Notes under the pieces: generated by a model
Databases searched by the model: none
What the model was told of the DNA's origin: nothing
What the model saw: the letters and a program-made list of their open reading frames with translations, nothing else
From: Escherichia coli
Lineage (GTDB): Bacteria; Pseudomonadota; Gammaproteobacteria; Enterobacterales; Enterobacteriaceae
Reading direction: 5' to 3' (one strand)
Assembly (NCBI RefSeq): GCF_050920415.1
Contig: NZ_CP169309.1
Length of the DNA: 64,000 bases
Part shown: positions 24,433 through 33,044 of the stretch, one piece after another
How positions within the stretch are numbered: position 1 is the first letter of the stretch
Layout: each line of letters starts with the position of its first letter
Program-made: the position numbers and the translations under genes

Positions 24433-25650
24433 TTACAGCTGATGATAACCAGAAAGGAAACGCGCGAACTTACTCAAAGACAGCTCGATATCATCAACAC
24501 GTGGTAGCGTGACAATGCGGAAGTGATCCGGCCACGGCCAGTTGAATGCTGTCCCTTGAACCAGCAGGACTTTTTCCTGCAACAGGAAATCCAGCACCAT
24601 TTTCTGGTCGTCGTGAATGTTAAAGCGTTTAGCGTCGATTTTCGGGAACATGTACAGCGCACCGCGCGGTTTCACGCAGGAAACGCCCGGAATATCGTTG
24701 ATCAATTCCCACGCACGGTTACGCTGTTCATAAAGACGCCCGCCGGGTGTAATAAATTCACTGATGCTCTGATAACCGCCCAGCGCGGTTTGAATGGCGT
24801 GTTGCGCAGGAACGTTAGCACACAGGCGCATCGAAGCCAGCATTTCCAGACCTTCGATGTAACCTTTAGCGTGTTTTTTCGGCCCGTTCAGCACCATCCA
24901 ACCCTGACGGAAGCCCGCAACGCGGTACGTTTTCGACAGTCCGTTAAAGGTTATGGTTAGCAGGTCTGGTGCCATCGCGGCAATTGAGTGATGCTCGGCG
25001 TCGTCATAGAGAATTTTGTCGTAAATTTCATCGGCGAAGATAATGAGATTATGCTGACGCGCAATCTCCACAATCTCCATTAAAAGCTCTTTGGAATAAA
25101 CTGCGCCGGTTGGGTTATTTGGGTTGATAATAACGATTCCACGCGTACGAGGCGTAATTTTAGCGCGAATATCATCAAGGTCCGGGAACCAGTCAGAGGA
25201 TTCATCGCAAAGATAATGCACCGCTTTACCGCTGGATAGCGAAACCGCCGCAGTCCAAAGAGGGTAATCAGGCGCAGGAACTAACATTTCGTCCCCGCTG
25301 TTCAGCAATGCCTGCATTGCCTGAACGATAAGCTCCGATACACCATTGCCGATGTAAATATCTTCCACGGTAACATCACGCATGCCACGAGCCTGGTAGT
25401 GCTGCATGATGGCTTTACGCGCGGAGTAAAGCCCTTTGGAATCGCAATACCCTTGAGCGGTAGGCAGGTTGCGAATCACGTCAACGAGGATTTCATCTGG
25501 CGCGTCAAAACCGAACGGGGCAGGATTGCCGATGTTCAGTTTCAGTACCTTGTTACCTTCTTCTTCCAGGCGTTTTGCTTCTTTCAGCACCGGACCACGG
25601 ATGTCGTAACAGACATTCTCTAATTTGCTGGATTTTTCAATGGGGGACAT
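24433..25650 (-). CDS. alaA: glutamate-pyruvate aminotransferase AlaA
   Basis: 405-aa ORF MSPIEKSSKLENVCYDIRGPVLKEAKRLEEEG; fold-type I aminotransferase with PLP-lysine region SKTYRVAGFRQGW. Confidence 0.93.
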   Translation of the reverse strand: MSPIEKSSKLENVCYDIRGPVLKEAKRLEEEGNKVLKLNIGNPAPFGFDAPDEILVDVIRNLPTAQGYCDSKGLYSARKAIMQHYQARGMRDVTVEDIYIGNGVSELIVQAMQALLNSGDEMLVPAPDYPLWTAAVSLSSGKAVHYLCDESSDWFPDLDDIRAKITPRTRGIVIINPNNPTGAVYSKELLMEIVEIARQHNLIIFADEIYDKILYDDAEHHSIAAMAPDLLTITFNGLSKTYRVAGFRQGWMVLNGPKKHAKGYIEGLEMLASMRLCANVPAQHAIQTALGGYQSISEFITPGGRLYEQRNRAWELINDIPGVSCVKPRGALYMFPKIDAKRFNIHDDQKMVLDFLLQEKVLLVQGTAFNWPWPDHFRIVTLPRVDDIELSLSKFARFLSGYHQL

Positions 25651-26566
25651 GAATCTTGACCTTTTTTGCTGTTATCGCCACTCCCTGCCGTGGAAGTCAG
25701 CTTAGAACAATGTACTCCCCCAGGACGGCGTTTTGAAGGTCTGCAGAATAAGATTTTGCCAGAGGGGAAGGCTTGATTGTGCTGTTAATAACTTAATAAT
25801 GGCAAAATAATTAGGTGTATATGCTTAATAATTAATGTTATGTAGTTAATTGTTCTGATTCTTAATTGTGGGTGTGGTTTTTTTATCTGTAAGATAATTG
25901 TTTGAAAATGCCTCGTTTAAGAATTCACTAATGAATCGTGATGATGATATTTCCGCATTACGGAGAGTTTAACAGCGTGATGATTTCCGAGGTGTCGTAA
26001 TGGGGGCAAGGTGTGAAACTATTGTTAAGCGGGATTAATGAATGAGGATGATGCTAATTAATTATTATTTAATATTCAAAAAGGTTTTGTTGTGCTTATT
26101 AATAATAGAAGATTACTTTGCCTAACATAACATAACTTTGCATCAGATAATTCGCAATGACCCTTATAAATAAAAGGTTTTTGGGGTAAAATGCTCGCAT
26201 AAATGACGGATCCCTGCTCTTGATGCCGCCTCACCATTGCTGTTTGTACGTGTTCGCGTATGACCAGCGATGCTGCACGAGAGTGGAACAAGGACTCACA
26301 TTTACATTTATACAAACACGCGCATGTCATAAATACAAAAGAGTGAGTAACTTAATAGATATGCGATTCCTGAAGATATATTCTGTGATCTACTTCAGGC
26401 ATTATAACGGAACAATGTGAGTCGCTTTTTTAGTGCAACTCATATGCATTTTTACTTTCGTCCGGGTTCCGGATGAAACTGCCAGGGAGGCACATTACAA
26501 ATGGAATTGCTTGTTTGTGTGTGCACAGCATTAACCAGCTCAGTACGAGCCGCCAGTAAGTGATAA

Positions 26567-27508
<942 letters not shown>

Positions 27509-27552
27509 TCGATGGACCATAGATAATTTCTAAGACAATAGTGTAAAAACGA

Positions 27553-27590
27553 GCCGCTGGGGGTGTTTTAAACCCCAGCGGCTTTTTTTT
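27553..27590 (+). terminator. intrinsic terminator after lrhA
   Basis: Hairpin GCCGCTGGGGG-N8-CCCCAGCGGC followed by T8. Confidence 0.7.
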
Positions 27591-28137
27591 AGTAAAAAGC
27601 CTTCCTCGTATCGTGCAGAACGCACAAAACTGTTCATTTTTCAATCACCAGAGATTCACGTCCCGAACGCACAAATAATCGCCTGAAAAAAATCACCTGC
27701 TACAATGATGTTAAAAAATACGTAAATTTGTTGCTGCGTTTTTGTTATGGAATGACAAAAGCGTGTCACAGATCAAGAAAATACTCTCTTTTGGGGGGAG
27801 GAATCGACACAAATTCCTGTCAAAATAGACCCGTATTTTTTCCATTGCTTCACAACGGACACGATTCAACAACATCTAATTATCCTGGAGTCGTCAAGGA
27901 TCTGGGGTGAAAGGGCATTAAATGCTAATGGTGTTGATATTATGTAAACTAATGTGAAGAAACTTTTGTTAAAGTTGACAAAAGGTTATAGAAAGGAGTA
28001 AAAGACCACATCAATTAGCTGTATAAAAGAGTTTCTACAGTGATTGTAAGGTTTTTTTTATTCCTCCCCATGAATCGATGTGGCGTCCATCTGCCGTGAA
28101 GAGCAGTGAATCTGGCGCTACTTTTGATGAGTAAGCA

Positions 28138-28581
28138 ATGAGTATGTCAACATCCACTGAAGTCATCGCTCATCACTGGGCATTCGCTATCTTTCTTATC
28201 GTTGCCATTGGCCTGTGTTGCCTGATGCTGGTAGGCGGTTGGTTTTTAGGCGGTCGCGCACGCGCGAGGTCGAAAAACGTTCCGTTTGAATCCGGTATCG
28301 ACTCGGTCGGCTCCGCCCGCTTACGCCTGTCCGCCAAGTTTTATCTGGTGGCCATGTTCTTCGTTATCTTCGACGTTGAAGCGCTGTATCTGTTCGCATG
28401 GTCAACTTCTATCCGCGAAAGCGGCTGGGTAGGCTTTGTGGAAGCTGCAATTTTTATTTTTGTGTTACTGGCAGGTCTGGTTTATCTGGTGCGTATTGGC
28501 GCGCTGGACTGGACGCCCGCGCGTTCACGCCGCGAGCGTATGAACCCGGAAACGAACAGTATCGCTAATCGTCAACGCTAA
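28138..28581 (+). CDS. nuoA: NADH:quinone oxidoreductase subunit A
   Basis: 147-aa membrane ORF; first gene of the 13-ORF nuoA-N block. Confidence 0.95.
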
Positions 28582-28596
28582 CCGCGAGGCATTAAG

Positions 28597-29259
28597 ATGG
28601 ATTATACGCTCACCCGCATAGATCCCAACGGTGAGAACGACCGTTACCCCCTGCAAAAGCAGGAGATCGTAACCGACCCTCTGGAGCAAGAAGTTAACAA
28701 AAACGTGTTTATGGGCAAGCTCAATGACATGGTTAACTGGGGTCGTAAAAACTCAATTTGGCCGTATAACTTCGGTCTTTCCTGCTGTTACGTTGAGATG
28801 GTGACTTCGTTTACCGCGGTGCATGACGTGGCACGTTTTGGCGCAGAAGTATTGCGTGCTTCGCCGCGTCAGGCTGACCTGATGGTGGTTGCAGGAACCT
28901 GCTTTACCAAAATGGCACCGGTTATTCAGCGTCTGTATGACCAGATGCTGGAACCAAAATGGGTTATCTCAATGGGGGCCTGTGCCAACTCTGGCGGTAT
29001 GTACGATATTTATTCCGTTGTGCAGGGCGTCGATAAATTCATTCCGGTTGATGTGTATATCCCGGGCTGCCCGCCACGTCCTGAAGCGTACATGCAGGCA
29101 TTGATGCTGTTGCAGGAATCTATCGGCAAAGAACGTCGTCCGCTCTCATGGGTGGTTGGCGATCAGGGCGTTTATCGCGCCAACATGCAATCAGAGCGCG
29201 AACGCAAGCGCGGTGAACGCATTGCCGTTACCAACCTGCGTACACCTGACGAGATTTAA
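28597..29259 (+). CDS. nuoB: NADH:quinone oxidoreductase subunit B
   Basis: 220-aa ORF with the N2 4Fe-4S cluster cysteines (CCYVEM ... GCPP). Confidence 0.95.
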
Positions 29260-29364
29260 TTTGCGCCTGTCGGCAAAGGGATTTTTCTTCGCTTATTCCT
29301 AAATCTATTTCGCGAAGCTTACTGCGCCGACAGTCACCACGGACCATTTGCAATGGTGAACAAT

Positions 29365-31155
29365 ATGACCGACTTAACCGCGCAAGAACCCGCCTGGCAG
29401 ACCCGCGATCATCTTGATGATCCGGTGATTGGCGAACTGCGCAACCGTTTTGGGCCGGATGCCTTTACTGTTCAGGCGACTCGCACCGGGGTTCCCGTTG
29501 TGTGGATCAAGCGTGAACAATTACTGGAAGTGGGTGATTTCTTAAAGAAACTGCCGAAACCTTACGTCATGCTGTTTGACTTACACGGCATGGACGAACG
29601 TCTGCGCACACACCGCGAAGGGTTACCTGCCGCGGATTTTTCCGTTTTCTACCATCTGATATCTATTGATCGTAACCGCGACATCATGCTGAAGGTGGCG
29701 CTGGCAGAAAACGACCTGCACGTACCGACCTTCACCAAGCTGTTCCCGAACGCTAACTGGTATGAGCGTGAAACCTGGGATCTGTTTGGCATTACTTTCG
29801 ACGGTCACCCCAATTTGCGCCGCATCATGATGCCGCAAACCTGGAAAGGTCACCCGCTGCGTAAAGATTACCCGGCGCGCGCTACCGAATTCTCGCCGTT
29901 TGAGCTGACCAAAGCCAAACAGGATCTGGAGATGGAAGCCCTGACCTTCAAACCGGAAGAGTGGGGGATGAAGCGCGGCACCGAAAATGAAGACTTCATG
30001 TTCCTCAACCTCGGTCCGAACCACCCGTCGGCGCACGGTGCTTTCCGTATCGTTTTGCAGCTCGATGGCGAAGAGATTGTCGACTGCGTACCAGACATCG
30101 GTTACCACCACCGTGGCGCGGAGAAAATGGGCGAGCGCCAGTCATGGCACAGCTACATTCCGTATACCGACCGTATCGAATATCTCGGTGGCTGTGTTAA
30201 CGAGATGCCGTATGTACTGGCGGTAGAGAAACTGGCCGGGATCACCGTACCAGATCGCGTTAACGTCATTCGCGTAATGCTTTCTGAGCTGTTCCGCATC
30301 AACAGCCACCTGCTGTATATCTCGACCTTTATTCAGGATGTCGGCGCGATGACGCCAGTGTTCTTCGCCTTTACCGATCGTCAGAAAATTTACGATCTGG
30401 TGGAAGCAATCACTGGTTTCCGTATGCACCCGGCGTGGTTCCGTATTGGCGGCGTAGCGCACGACCTGCCGCGTGGCTGGGATCGCCTGCTGCGTGAGTT
30501 CCTCGACTGGATGCCGAAACGTCTGGCGTCTTATGAGAAAGCGGCGCTGCAAAACACCATTTTGAAAGGCCGTTCCCAGGGCGTAGCCGCCTACGGCGCG
30601 AAAGAGGCGCTGGAGTGGGGCACCACCGGTGCTGGTTTGCGCGCTACCGGGATCGACTTCGATGTGCGTAAGGCGCGTCCTTATTCTGGCTATGAAAACT
30701 TCGACTTTGAAATCCCGGTTGGTGGTGGTGTTTCTGACTGCTACACCCGCGTAATGCTGAAAGTGGAAGAACTGCGTCAGAGTCTGCGCATTCTTGAGCA
30801 GTGCCTCAACAACATGCCGGAAGGCCCGTTCAAAGCGGATCACCCGCTGACCACGCCGCCGCCGAAAGAGCGCACGTTGCAACATATCGAAACCCTGATC
30901 ACCCACTTCCTGCAAGTGTCGTGGGGGCCGGTGATGCCTGCCAATGAATCTTTCCAGATGATTGAGGCGACCAAAGGGATCAACAGTTACTACCTGACCA
31001 GCGACGGCAGCACCATGAGTTATCGCACCCGTATCCGTACGCCGAGTTATGCGCATTTGCAGCAAATTCCGGCGGCGATCCGCGGCAGCCTGGTGTCTGA
31101 CCTGATTGTTTATCTGGGCAGTATCGATTTTGTTATGTCAGATGTGGACCGCTAA
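29365..31155 (+). CDS. nuoC: NADH:quinone oxidoreductase fused subunit C/D
   Basis: Fused 30-kDa and 49-kDa subunit domains; start chosen at the ATG preceded by a GGTGA Shine-Dalgarno (MTDLTAQEP), track ORF starts at 29353. Confidence 0.93.
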
Positions 31156-32992: not shown

Positions 32993-33044
32993 CCGAATTT
33001 CGATTAACGCTCAGTCTCTGACTGAGAAAACTGGAAGCATGCTA

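Follow-up and report, generated by a model that had tools for sequence, protein, structure and literature searches.

The lrhA-nuoA intergenic region of Escherichia coli as a conserved, probably composite control region of the nuo operon with a covarying stem-loop before nuoA

The window analysed here is a stretch of 64,000 nucleotides of Escherichia coli DNA (contig NZ_CP169309.1), in which lrhA (26570-27508, plus strand) and nuoA (28138-28581, plus strand) are separated by a spacer at 27509-28137. This spacer is 629 bp long, in agreement with the interval of about 630 bp given in a preliminary description made from the sequence alone, and has a GC content of 0.388, compared with 0.502 for lrhA, 0.529 for nuoA, and 0.517 for the whole window. 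It is the already known control region of the nuo operon of E. coli, which was reportedly studied by Bongaerts et al. in 1995 and Wackwitz et al. in 1999, and in Salmonella by Archer and Elliott in 1995. As the re-identification of a region characterised since 1995, the finding as such matters little; what is added to the known locus is its order-wide conservation, the fixed spacing of its conserved blocks, and the covariation of a helix in the mRNA leader.

The nuoA-N region of K-12 MG1655 is the same locus with the same layout and differs from the window in no essential respect. Its spacer is 630 bp long, and no feature is annotated inside it by RefSeq. The flanking genes, the spacer length, the ArcA sites, the RyhB site, and the RNA polymerase-binding promoter are all shared, and two positions differ across 27660-28137; the putative -10 element reads TAAAAA in K-12 and TAAAAG here (position 28004), and a leader SNP near 28031 is A in K-12 and G here. 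The region was found in 5423 of 5426 complete E. coli genomes, exclusively on chromosomes. The lrhA-nuoA synteny with a spacer of about 625-650 bp is shared by the majority of 80 Enterobacteriaceae species that were compared, and the same synteny with a similar spacer also occurs in Yersinia, Serratia, Dickeya, Pectobacterium, Erwinia, and Mixta, the distant relatives having been collected through NuoA homologues. The features of the region are listed in Table 1.

Table 1. Features of the lrhA-nuoA spacer, in window coordinates
Feature	Position	Strand	Details
lrhA 3′ UTR before hairpin	27509-27551	+	mean cross-species identity 0.42; published mRNA 3′ end 27539
Intrinsic terminator of lrhA	27544-27591	+	core stem 27552-27583, 10-nt loop, T-run 27583-27590
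Fast-evolving spacer	27591-27706	.	mean identity 0.31 (below 0.61 at nuoA fourfold-degenerate sites); length mostly ~119-120 bp
Distal ArcA-P site "nuoA2"	27709-27751	+	three direct-repeat elements; TGTTAAAAAATACGTAAATTTGTTGCTGCGTTTTTGTTATGGA
Most conserved upstream block	27752-27805	.	mean identity 0.86; contains GTGTCACAGATCAA
Conserved block TCCTGTCAAAATAG	27815-27828	.	identity 0.93; kept as far as Erwinia, Mixta, Leminorella
Cra (FruR)-like operator ACGGACACGATTCAAC	27855-27870	.	overlaps -10 region of distal start site
Distal transcription start site	27875	+	from literature; 263-nt leader
5′-proximal hairpin of long leader	27880-27910	+	sequence variable; hairpin propensity kept in many genera
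Proximal ArcA-P site "nuoA1"	27931-27961	+	GTGTTGATATTATGTAAACTAATGTGAAGAA; overlaps CpxR-like box
CpxR-like box GTAAACTAATGTGAA	27944-27958		1 mismatch; kept in 53/75 species
Sigma70-type core promoter	27975-28004	+	TTGACA 27975-27980, 18-nt spacer, TAAAAG 27999-28004; predicted start ~28010
Leader hairpin 1 (GCUGUA...UACAGU)	28018-28041	+	start ~28048 just 3′
U8 run, C-rich AUUCCUCCCC (28060-28069), and invariant CATGAATCGATGTGGC (28069-28084; second Cra-like site)	28052-28084	+	identity 0.87
Covarying leader stem-loop and U-rich tract	28080-28128	+	outer helix 28080-28087/28114-28121; inner 28091-28094/28103-28106
nuoA ribosome-binding region and RyhB pairing site	28129-28149	+	start codon 28138 (annotated), second AUG 28144

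The two parts of the spacer evolve very differently. Positions 27509-27706 change fast except for the terminator, whereas 27707-28137 consists of blocks that are as conserved as codon positions 1-2, lie at nearly fixed spacing, and persist in Yersinia, Serratia, and Erwinia. Identity in the conserved blocks is 0.86-0.95, against 0.61 at fourfold-degenerate sites of nuoA and 0.30-0.47 in the gaps between blocks. Conserved control DNA is confined to the nuoA-proximal stretch of about 430 bp (27707-28137), and the approximately 116 bp past the terminator are a fast-evolving spacer. The block-to-block distances are 47 bp (in 73 of 77 species), 98 ± 1 bp, and 120 ± 1 bp, and the sequences of the gaps vary. 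That blocks and distances, each within about 1 bp, are kept over some 430 bp across a bacterial order argues that nuo is under a phased multi-protein assembly rather than independent sites, and the fixed spacing probably reflects such a phased nucleoprotein assembly.

The low GC content (about 0.38), the unconstrained stretch at 27591-27706, and the insertions of 100-300 bp found within it in a few species (L014, L060, and L074) would fit an AT-rich spacer that is mostly non-functional or foreign, for example a mobile-element remnant or an H-NS-silenced tract, with only a short promoter beside nuoA. This is extremely improbable in view of the order-wide constraint and spacing described above, the nearly universal and exclusively chromosomal occurrence of the region in E. 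coli, and searches for repeats and RNA families that found none there; for 27707-28137, foreign or non-functional DNA is refuted by the conservation data.

Likewise, the interval holds no convincing open reading frame (ORF), as the preliminary description had stated. When every spacer ORF of 10 codons or more was compared among 75 Enterobacteriaceae species, none kept its start, frame, and stop to a degree that DNA invariance does not already explain; small ORFs survive only in stretches of invariant DNA, and the RefSeq annotation of K-12 is empty here. A 54-aa ORF on the minus strand is intact in 2 of the 75 species and a 60-aa ORF on the plus strand in one. A hidden gene was rejected on this conservation test and on an alignment-free retest of a small upstream ORF (uORF), whose frame and start vary or which is absent.

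At the lrhA end, the strong terminator noted earlier at 27553-27590 was recovered as a hairpin plus T-run at 27552-27590. Its stem of 11-12 bp is followed by U8, and a flanking A5 tract can lengthen it; the folding energy is -29.3 kcal/mol (z = -5.2), and none of 200 shuffled sequences folds as well. In 71 of 81 species, a hairpin plus T-tail (dG <= -10) lies about 77 nt past the lrhA stop codon. Since this position is conserved and the stem sequences differ, the terminator is a selected feature, and it is kept with compensatory changes. It was not listed by a consensus promoter/terminator scanner because its 10-nt loop exceeds the scanner limit of 8. In vivo, Term-seq places the 3′ end of the lrhA mRNA at K-12 position 2405672/3, corresponding to 27539 in the window and thus upstream of the hairpin, and in three conditions no 3′ end was called near 27590, in the U-tract of the hairpin (PMC7815308). 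The missing call could be due to weak expression of lrhA or to the way in which peaks were called.

With regard to the upstream regulator sites, TGTTAAAAAATACGTAAATTTGTTGCTGCGTTTTTGTTATGGA and GTGTTGATATTATGTAAACTAATGTGAAGAA are identical to predicted sites associated with ArcA ChIP-seq peaks, and nuo expression was reported to rise 2.7-fold in an arcA mutant (PMC3798270). ArcA-P operators consist of direct repeats of TGTTAA-like elements with 11-bp phasing, and nuoA1 and nuoA2 qualify as such by site identity and by ArcA-dependent expression. Within nuoA2, the blocks at 27707-27718 and 27729-27740 are near-invariant. In the most conserved upstream block, ATCAA (27772-27776, in the GTGTCACAGATCAA block) is read, from its consensus, as half of a putative FNR/IHF-like site, and TACTCTC (27782-27788) and GGGGGGA (27793-27799) presumably form a pair of inverted NarL-like heptamers with a variable 4-nt spacer. 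In the alignment, the heptamer of other genera is a perfect TACCCCT or TACTCCT.

The Cra-like operator ACGGACACGATTCAAC is invariant in 75 of 75 species and agrees with the published Cra motif gcTGAAtCGaTTCAgc (taken from PMC5888115) at about 12 of 16 positions, its right half being perfect. The second Cra-like site (28069-28084) agrees equally well, at about 12 of 16 positions, with a perfect left half, and in other families the Cra-like site takes the form CTGAC(A/T)CGATTTAGC. In the same study, ChIP-exo placed Cra upstream of nuoABC (PMC5888115). It was also reported that CpxR represses nuo (PMC8831704) and that CRP activates it (PMC3105977). According to PMC1905917, which cites Bongaerts 1995 and Wackwitz 1999, the operon is repressed by ArcA, activated by NarL, weakly repressed by FNR and IHF, and stimulated by Fis.

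The complex, multi-input promoter that had been proposed for nuo is supported by the literature on ArcA, NarL, FNR, IHF, Fis, Cra, CRP, CpxR, and RyhB, together with the conserved blocks. The individual sites fared unequally: among the five factors named earlier for motif scanning, ArcA has two sites identical to published ones and NarL has the putative heptamers, whereas matches for FNR (at best with 3 mismatches) and Fis were weak or absent and IHF had no match. For FNR, IHF, CRP, Fis, and PdhR the consensus scans gave weak or no matches and were not used as evidence. Except at the ArcA sites, the factors named for the blocks are putative assignments.

The narGHJI promoter combines distal NarL heptamers and an IHF bend with a proximal activator site. 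Features of this type shared by nuo are the inverted pair of NarL-like heptamers (TACYYMT) some 200 bp 5′ of the conserved core promoter, the ATCAA block beside them, and the rigid helical spacing to the promoter. In contrast to the 7-2-7 arrangement at narG, the heptamers of nuo are separated by 4 nt, and in E. coli the nuo heptamer is degenerate (TACTCTC) and no IHF consensus match is found in the region.

The core promoter has a -35 element with a 6/6 match (TTGACA) and a -10 element with a 4/6 match (TAAAAG), which is without the conserved final T (at -7); for this reason the element was not listed by the consensus scanner. It is invariant across 76 species, and the surrounding block (27943-28010, identity 0.93) is conserved in Yersinia, Serratia, Erwinia, and Mixta. 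A SELEX peak of the RpoD holoenzyme lies over the element, which is listed as a constitutive promoter of nuoA (PMC3946193). Start points given in the literature are located elsewhere. A PBAD-nuoA-lacZ fusion made "from +1" begins with TCTAATTATCC, that is, at 27875 (PMC6497325, Table S2), and the numbering of the ArcA sites in PMC3798270 likewise puts +1 at 27875; a proximal start at about 28048 is derived from the numbering in the same paper. Both of these starts have poor or unconserved -35 and -10 elements, and the best-conserved promoter predicts a start at about 28010 instead. Given these starts (27875 and about 28048 from the literature, about 28010 predicted from the conserved TTGACA promoter), the word "leader", which the preliminary description applied to the whole interval, holds literally for the part downstream of them and not for the rest.

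Within the long leader, the segment 27880-27910 gave a mean folding z of -1.14 on the plus strand in an alignment-free comparison, versus -0.61 for its reverse complement and -0.64 for a control segment. With RNAalifold, register shifts prevented any consensus structure for this segment in Escherichia, Citrobacter, and Salmonella, and the folding data weakly suggest a hairpin here as a tendency only. An RNA 3′ end was mapped by Term-seq to K-12 position 2405297, equivalent to 27913 (PMC7815308). In leader hairpin 1, 76% of the alignment cells are paired and double changes occur at three pairs, and the hairpin is weak in a single-sequence fold. The proximal leader as a whole is not unusually stable (folding z 0.18). 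The segment at 28052-28084 reads CCUUCCC...AAUCGAUGUGG across families. A long-range RNA helix between GGGGAGGAAT (27795-27804) and ATTCCTCCCC (28060-28069) was rejected, since variants with GATGA keep CCTCC, so that there is no covariation, and the two repeat pairs are not arranged in a nested order.

The last element of the leader is the stem-loop followed by a U-rich tract, which is kept throughout Enterobacterales. Among 61 distinct sequences, the outer helix (28080-28121) is 95-98% paired, and seven of its eight pairs show double changes. The predicted folding energy ranges from -10 to -17.5 kcal/mol, and in all 61 sequences U occupies 4-7 of the next 9 nt. The stem-loop and its tract end 10-14 nt before the nuoA start codon. 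Term-seq 3′ ends were reported at 28124 and 28128, 3 and 7 nt past the helix, with 282,730, 475,924, and 124,622 reads; their Rho score is 0.82 (not significant), and as intrinsic terminators they score 11.56, the threshold being 3 (PMC7815308). RNA coverage in the same study is 609 downstream of the hairpin and 259 upstream (PMC7815308). As downstream coverage exceeds upstream coverage, no more than a part of the transcripts would terminate at 28080-28128, and decay might have produced the 3′ ends. Most likely, the stem-loop brings about partial Rho-independent premature termination and/or shields a leader fragment from 3′ exonucleases, and we infer that the hairpin terminates transcription.

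A purely protective stem-loop is possible, though it falls short of being probable. In that case, 28124 and 28128 would mark decay intermediates, left behind once RNase E has cleaved the AU-rich stretch around the ribosome-binding site, as might follow RyhB/Hfq pairing, and 3′ exonucleases have stalled at the stem. The distances of 3 and 7 nt fit exonuclease stalling as well as termination, the coverage excess downstream points the same way, the RyhB site lies immediately 3′ of the stem-loop, and the U-tract is interrupted (UUUUGAU). On the other hand, decay accounts poorly for the published intrinsic-terminator score, for the presence of a U-rich tract after the helix in 61 of 61 distinct sequences, though the sequence of the tract varies, and for 3′ ends that are abundant under each of the three growth conditions and not under iron limitation alone.

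If the stem-loop terminates, its readthrough might be controlled by translation, as in classical attenuation, through a small protein or leader peptide such as an 18-codon uORF (28078-28134) across the hairpin. This uORF is present in E. coli, where its start coincides with the first pair of the helix and its end lies 3 nt short of nuoA, and some ORF of at least 10 codons lies in the segment of about 81 nt in 51 of 61 distinct sequences. A coding function is nevertheless very improbable: start codon, frame, length, and stop differ among genera, Kluyvera having AUG-UAG and Klebsiella no start codon; 10 of the 61 sequences have no such ORF; in the alignment no more than 23 of 75 species retain an intact uORF; it is preceded by C-rich sequence and no Shine-Dalgarno; and substitutions follow helix pairing, not codon position. 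The larger 54- and 60-aa ORFs fare no better.

No conserved alternative pairing that could act as an antiterminator for 28080-28128 was found by RNAalifold or in minimum-free-energy folds, and a search for a riboswitch or leader aptamer gave no Rfam match at E <= 1. Since neither antiterminator, leader peptide, aptamer, nor effector was found, the element is best described as working like a terminator, and it would be at most a candidate for a regulated attenuator. It is conceivable, but rather unlikely, that 28080-28128 is a regulated element, either a conditional attenuator of the 15-kb complex I operon or the 3′ part of an abundant small RNA that derives from the leader and acts in trans via AUUCCUCCCC; neither an attenuator nor a small-RNA function has been described so far for nuo. 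If readthrough were regulated, complex I synthesis would gain an unrecognised post-initiation checkpoint immediately upstream of the RyhB target.

That the proximal leader also gives rise to a trans-acting 5′-UTR-derived small RNA or sponge of about 80-120 nt, running from about 28010 or 28048 to 28128, is unlikely. It is similarly doubtful that the single-stranded C-rich AUUCCUCCCC serves as a seed against Shine-Dalgarno-like G-rich sequences, with the hairpin and U-tail as the Hfq module. The very abundant 3′ end speaks for such an RNA, as does the likeness of an unstructured C/U-rich segment, a terminator-type hairpin, and a U-tail to Hfq-dependent small RNAs; the C-rich motif is conserved across families, and the inner hairpin carries an (ARN)n-like run, AAGAGCAG. 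However, no target, Hfq-binding data, or Rfam family was found for it, and no characterised element is listed for this 3′ end in PMC7815308. Moreover, the C-rich block may be a DNA-level site, an identical 10-mer being present in inverted orientation at 27795-27804 without covariation.

Immediately downstream, AAGCAAUG (28133-28140) is complementary to CAUUGCUU of RyhB. Pairing of RyhB at the nuoA ribosome-binding site has been confirmed by compensatory mutations, in a sequence identical to that of the window (PMC6497325). Duplex energies calculated with duplexfold for full-length RyhB and for the seed only were no better than background, 229 of 1468 tiles scoring as well. As these energies do not discriminate, the site rests on the published genetics.

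Taken together, the interval is very probably a non-coding composite control region of the nuoA-N operon, which encodes NADH dehydrogenase I. Direct observation or the literature documents its anatomy, conservation, and covariation, the identity of the ArcA sites, the pairing with RyhB, and the 3′ ends of the RNA, and the proposed steps are as follows. The intrinsic-terminator hairpin would insulate nuo from lrhA transcription and is followed by the unconstrained spacer of about 116 bp. An upstream region of about 300 bp (27707-28010) would then present global-regulator sites in fixed phase, with ArcA at two places and NarL, FNR, IHF, Fis, Cra, CRP, and CpxR placed there by the literature and by motif matches. 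This region would feed at least two start points, the distal one at 27875 and one in the proximal promoter region with TTGACA-18-TAAAA(A/G). The resulting mRNAs would carry a structured leader whose last element is the GC-rich stem-loop with its U-tract, and a RyhB/Hfq target overlaps the ribosome-binding site.

Among known elements, the stem-loop is closest to the intrinsic terminators and attenuators in 5′ UTRs described by Term-seq (Adams et al. 2021, PMC7815308), with which it shares a GC-rich stem, a U-tract, and a Rho-independent 3′ end; no effector, antiterminator, leader peptide, or riboswitch aptamer is evident for the nuo hairpin. In that study, the nuo leader 3′ end appears only in a supplementary table, in which no regulatory element is noted (PMC7815308). 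No Rfam match at gathering score lies inside 27509-28137, which leaves the nuoA leader hairpin without a family, and the sole match to Rfam 15 at E <= 1 in 25000-29500 is a chance-level one on the lrhA terminator (19.6 bits versus a gathering score of 97). In a metagenome scan with CATCTGCCNNNNAGAGCAG for distant leader hairpins, a nuoA context was seen at 6 of 120 loci, all Klebsiella-like, and the remaining loci had matched by chance. The Rfam nuoG RNA motif (RF01748; 32995-33037 in the window) is also a short conserved hairpin of unknown function within the enterobacterial nuo transcript. Its CUCAGUC...GACUGAG stem is unrelated in sequence and shape to the GUGGCGUC...GGCGCUAC stem of the nuoA leader with its inner CUGC/GCAG helix. 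As a side observation, the 3′ end at 28124/28128 is among the more abundant 5′-UTR 3′ ends in E. coli.

The interval between lrhA and nuoA is the known control region of the nuoA-N operon (NADH dehydrogenase I), not a new kind of element. The overall interpretation in the preliminary description, a terminator followed by a non-coding nuo control region, is supported, as is the long AT-rich gap that it reported: the GC content of the spacer is 0.388, compared with 0.50-0.53 for the genes on either side. An 851-base stretch around the spacer was matched at 90-100% identity in 5423 of 5426 complete E. coli genomes, chromosomally in every case and between annotated lrhA and nuoA. In K-12 MG1655, the distance between the two genes is 630 bp, and the RefSeq annotation contains no feature between them. 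The coordinates of the main features are listed in the table.

Features of the lrhA-nuoA region (window positions)
Feature	Position	Remarks
lrhA	26570-27508	+ strand
lrhA-nuoA spacer	27509-28137	629 bp
lrhA terminator hairpin	27552-27583	core stem; loop of 10 nt; eight T's ending at 27590
Candidate NarL-like heptamer pair	27782-27799	inverted; perfect TACCCCT in many genera
Candidate CpxR-like box	27944-27958	sequence match
TTGACA-18-TAAAAG promoter	27975-28004	SELEX-listed element, last base G in the window
nuoA	28138-28581	+ strand

With regard to coding potential, all spacer ORFs of 10 or more codons were compared with the spacers of 75 further Enterobacteriaceae species, which were retrieved through NuoA. 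Two longer candidates were rejected as genes, a 54-aa ORF on the minus strand (intact in only 2 of the 75 species) and a 60-aa ORF on the plus strand (intact in only one), and short ORFs were kept solely where the DNA itself is invariant. An 18-codon upstream ORF (28078-28134), whose stop lies 3 nt before nuoA, was also discarded: its start codon, frame, and length vary among genera, being reduced to AUG-UAG in Kluyvera and lacking a start codon in Klebsiella. Since no ORF is conserved beyond this DNA invariance, the 75-species alignment offers no protein-coding gene that would contradict the earlier reading of the interval as devoid of convincing ORFs.

Conservation is distributed very unevenly. 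The lrhA-proximal part (27509-27706) is weakly conserved, with an identity of 0.31-0.42 outside the terminator and 0.58 within it, while conserved blocks in 27707-28137 show 0.86-0.95 identity to the window (75 species); for reference, codon positions 1-2 of nuoA score 0.94-0.98 and its fourfold-degenerate sites 0.61. Between the blocks, substitutions have reached saturation (identity 0.30-0.47), and the inter-block distances are nearly constant (47 bp in 73 of 77 species; others 98 +/- 1 bp and 120 +/- 1 bp), a combination that would be expected of phased protein-binding sites on one helix face. Yersinia, Serratia, Erwinia, and Mixta retain lrhA-nuoA synteny, the blocks, and a spacer of 640-710 bp, and Dickeya and Pectobacterium retain them in part; some blocks are also present in Leminorella, where different genes take the upstream position of lrhA. 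Larger spacers were observed in Intestinirhabdus alba (937 bp), Kosakonia oryziphila (748 bp), and Buttiauxella agrestis (747 bp), compared with ~630 bp; the surplus falls within the unconstrained stretch that separates the lrhA terminator from the first conserved block, with block content and spacing unaltered. Across the spacer, 14 positions distinguish the window from K-12, 12 of them in the first ~170 bp past lrhA. The remaining two are the only differences in the ~480 bp of control DNA adjoining nuoA: position 28004, the final base of the putative -10 hexamer, is G here (TAAAAG) and A in K-12 (TAAAAA) and most other species, and ~28031 in the leader is G here and A in K-12.

The terminator hairpin previously placed at 27553-27590 is present, as both folding (-29.3 kcal/mol, z -5.2) and shuffling (none of 200 shuffles as stable) agree. 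It was not reported by a generic terminator scanner because its loop exceeds the scanner limit of 8 nt. Of 81 related species, 71 have an equivalent ~77 nt past the lrhA stop, counted as a hairpin that reaches at least -10 kcal/mol with a T-rich tail behind it; the stem sequences vary, and such constancy of position with differing stems marks a terminator under selection. In the K-12 Term-seq tables for three growth conditions, no 3′ end was called at the U-tract (27583-27590), and the called lrhA 3′ end corresponds to 27539, in an AU-rich stretch 13 nt upstream of the hairpin (PMC7815308). This pattern could reflect weak signal alone, or endonucleolytic processing that frees a hairpin fragment of ~50 nt.

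The multi-input promoter region that had been proposed agrees with the literature, in which ArcA, Cra, CRP (PMC3105977), CpxR (PMC8831704), and NarL, FNR, IHF, and Fis (PMC1905917) are reported as nuo regulators. The ArcA sites predicted in a ChIP-seq study, in which nuo expression was 2.7-fold higher without ArcA (PMC3798270), correspond letter-for-letter to 27931-27961 and 27709-27751. Cra was detected upstream of nuo by ChIP-exo and activates it on acetate (PMC5888115); the published motif gcTGAAtCGaTTCAgc appears to fit two invariant stretches, 27855-27870 and 28069-28084, and the match is better still in other families. Like narG-type promoters, the region would have a NarL-like module placed distally and in fixed phase. 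Two exact inverted-repeat pairs, GGGGAGGAAT/ATTCCTCCCC (27795-27804 and 28060-28069) and CGATTCA/TGAATCG (27862-27868 and 28071-28077), join the upstream region to the leader, all four copies lying in invariant blocks ~210-265 bp apart. An RNA helix was ruled out because no covariation was found; the pairs could be paired protein-binding sites, the second fitting Cra half-sites, that would permit DNA looping.

The numbering of the ArcA-site table (PMC3798270) and the +1 of a PBAD-nuoA fusion (PMC6497325) give two start sites, one distal (27875) and one proximal (~28048). A constitutive nuoA promoter, TTGACA-18-TAAAAA, was listed by RNA polymerase holoenzyme SELEX (PMC3946193), and its counterpart here is the deepest-conserved stretch of the entire spacer. 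This promoter predicts a start at ~28010, for which no mapped site was found in the accessible literature; the 28048 end may derive from processing, or from reverse transcriptase stopping beside leader hairpin 1 (28018-28041).

Nearer to nuoA, a leader stem-loop (28080-28121) is supported by RNAalifold (76 sequences) and by explicit pair counting. Its outer helix is 8 bp long, and its inner helix, CUGC/GCAG, is invariant. When seven more distant genera were added, the outer helix was 95% paired, compared with 31-58% in slid controls, with both-side changes in 7 of 8 pairs, and frequent G-U pairs indicate that it is read on the plus strand as RNA. A U-rich tract follows the helix in every species. 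Very abundant Term-seq 3′ ends map to 28124 and 28128, 3 and 7 nt past the helix and 14 and 10 nt upstream of nuoA's start codon, with read counts of 282,730, 475,924, and 124,622, a non-significant Rho score (0.82), and an intrinsic-terminator score of 11.56 against a threshold of 3; no regulatory element was noted for this end by the authors (PMC7815308). It is concluded that the hairpin behaves as an intrinsic terminator or a 3′-end-protecting structure, one of many 5′-UTR 3′ ends catalogued by Term-seq. RNA coverage is higher downstream than upstream of it, and therefore most transcription runs on into nuoA. RNAalifold, folding, Rfam, and ORF comparison revealed no antiterminator, aptamer, or conserved leader peptide. 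At its 5′ end, the long leader has a variable segment prone to hairpin formation (27880-27910), just past which another 3′ end maps, at 27913 (PMC7815308).

Directly 3′ of the leader hairpin, AAGCAAUG (28133-28140) forms the core of the RyhB pairing site, at which pairing has been demonstrated by compensatory mutations (PMC6497325). The conserved terminator-like hairpin and the adjoining C-rich motif might be the sole part of the region worth experiments. The annotated nuoA start (ATG 28138, MSMSTSTEV...) is conserved only within Enterobacteriaceae and Yersinia; in Serratia, Dickeya, Pectobacterium, Erwinia, and Mixta, the codon there is ATA, AAG, AAA, or AGA, and they keep the second ATG alone (28144, MSTSTEV...), which may be the true or ancestral start codon.

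Some other elements were observed in the window. Between nuoF and nuoG (32995-33037; 50.3 bits, gathering score 33) there is a match to the Rfam nuoG RNA motif (RF01748), a known cis-element with no assigned function, whose sequence is unrelated to that of the nuoA leader hairpin. Two tandem matches to naRNA4/CssrE (RF02564), a REP-type nucleoid-associated RNA repeat, occur at 2072-2142 and 2163-2233 (75 and 81 bits). The divergent alaA-lrhA spacer (25651-26569, ~920 bp), a cited example of a long multi-factor spacer (PMC3946193), is longer and more AT-rich than the lrhA-nuoA spacer (GC 0.31-0.35 over 25700-26200), and orphan Term-seq 3′ ends map upstream of lrhA at K-12 positions 2406691 and 2406927/33 (PMC7815308).
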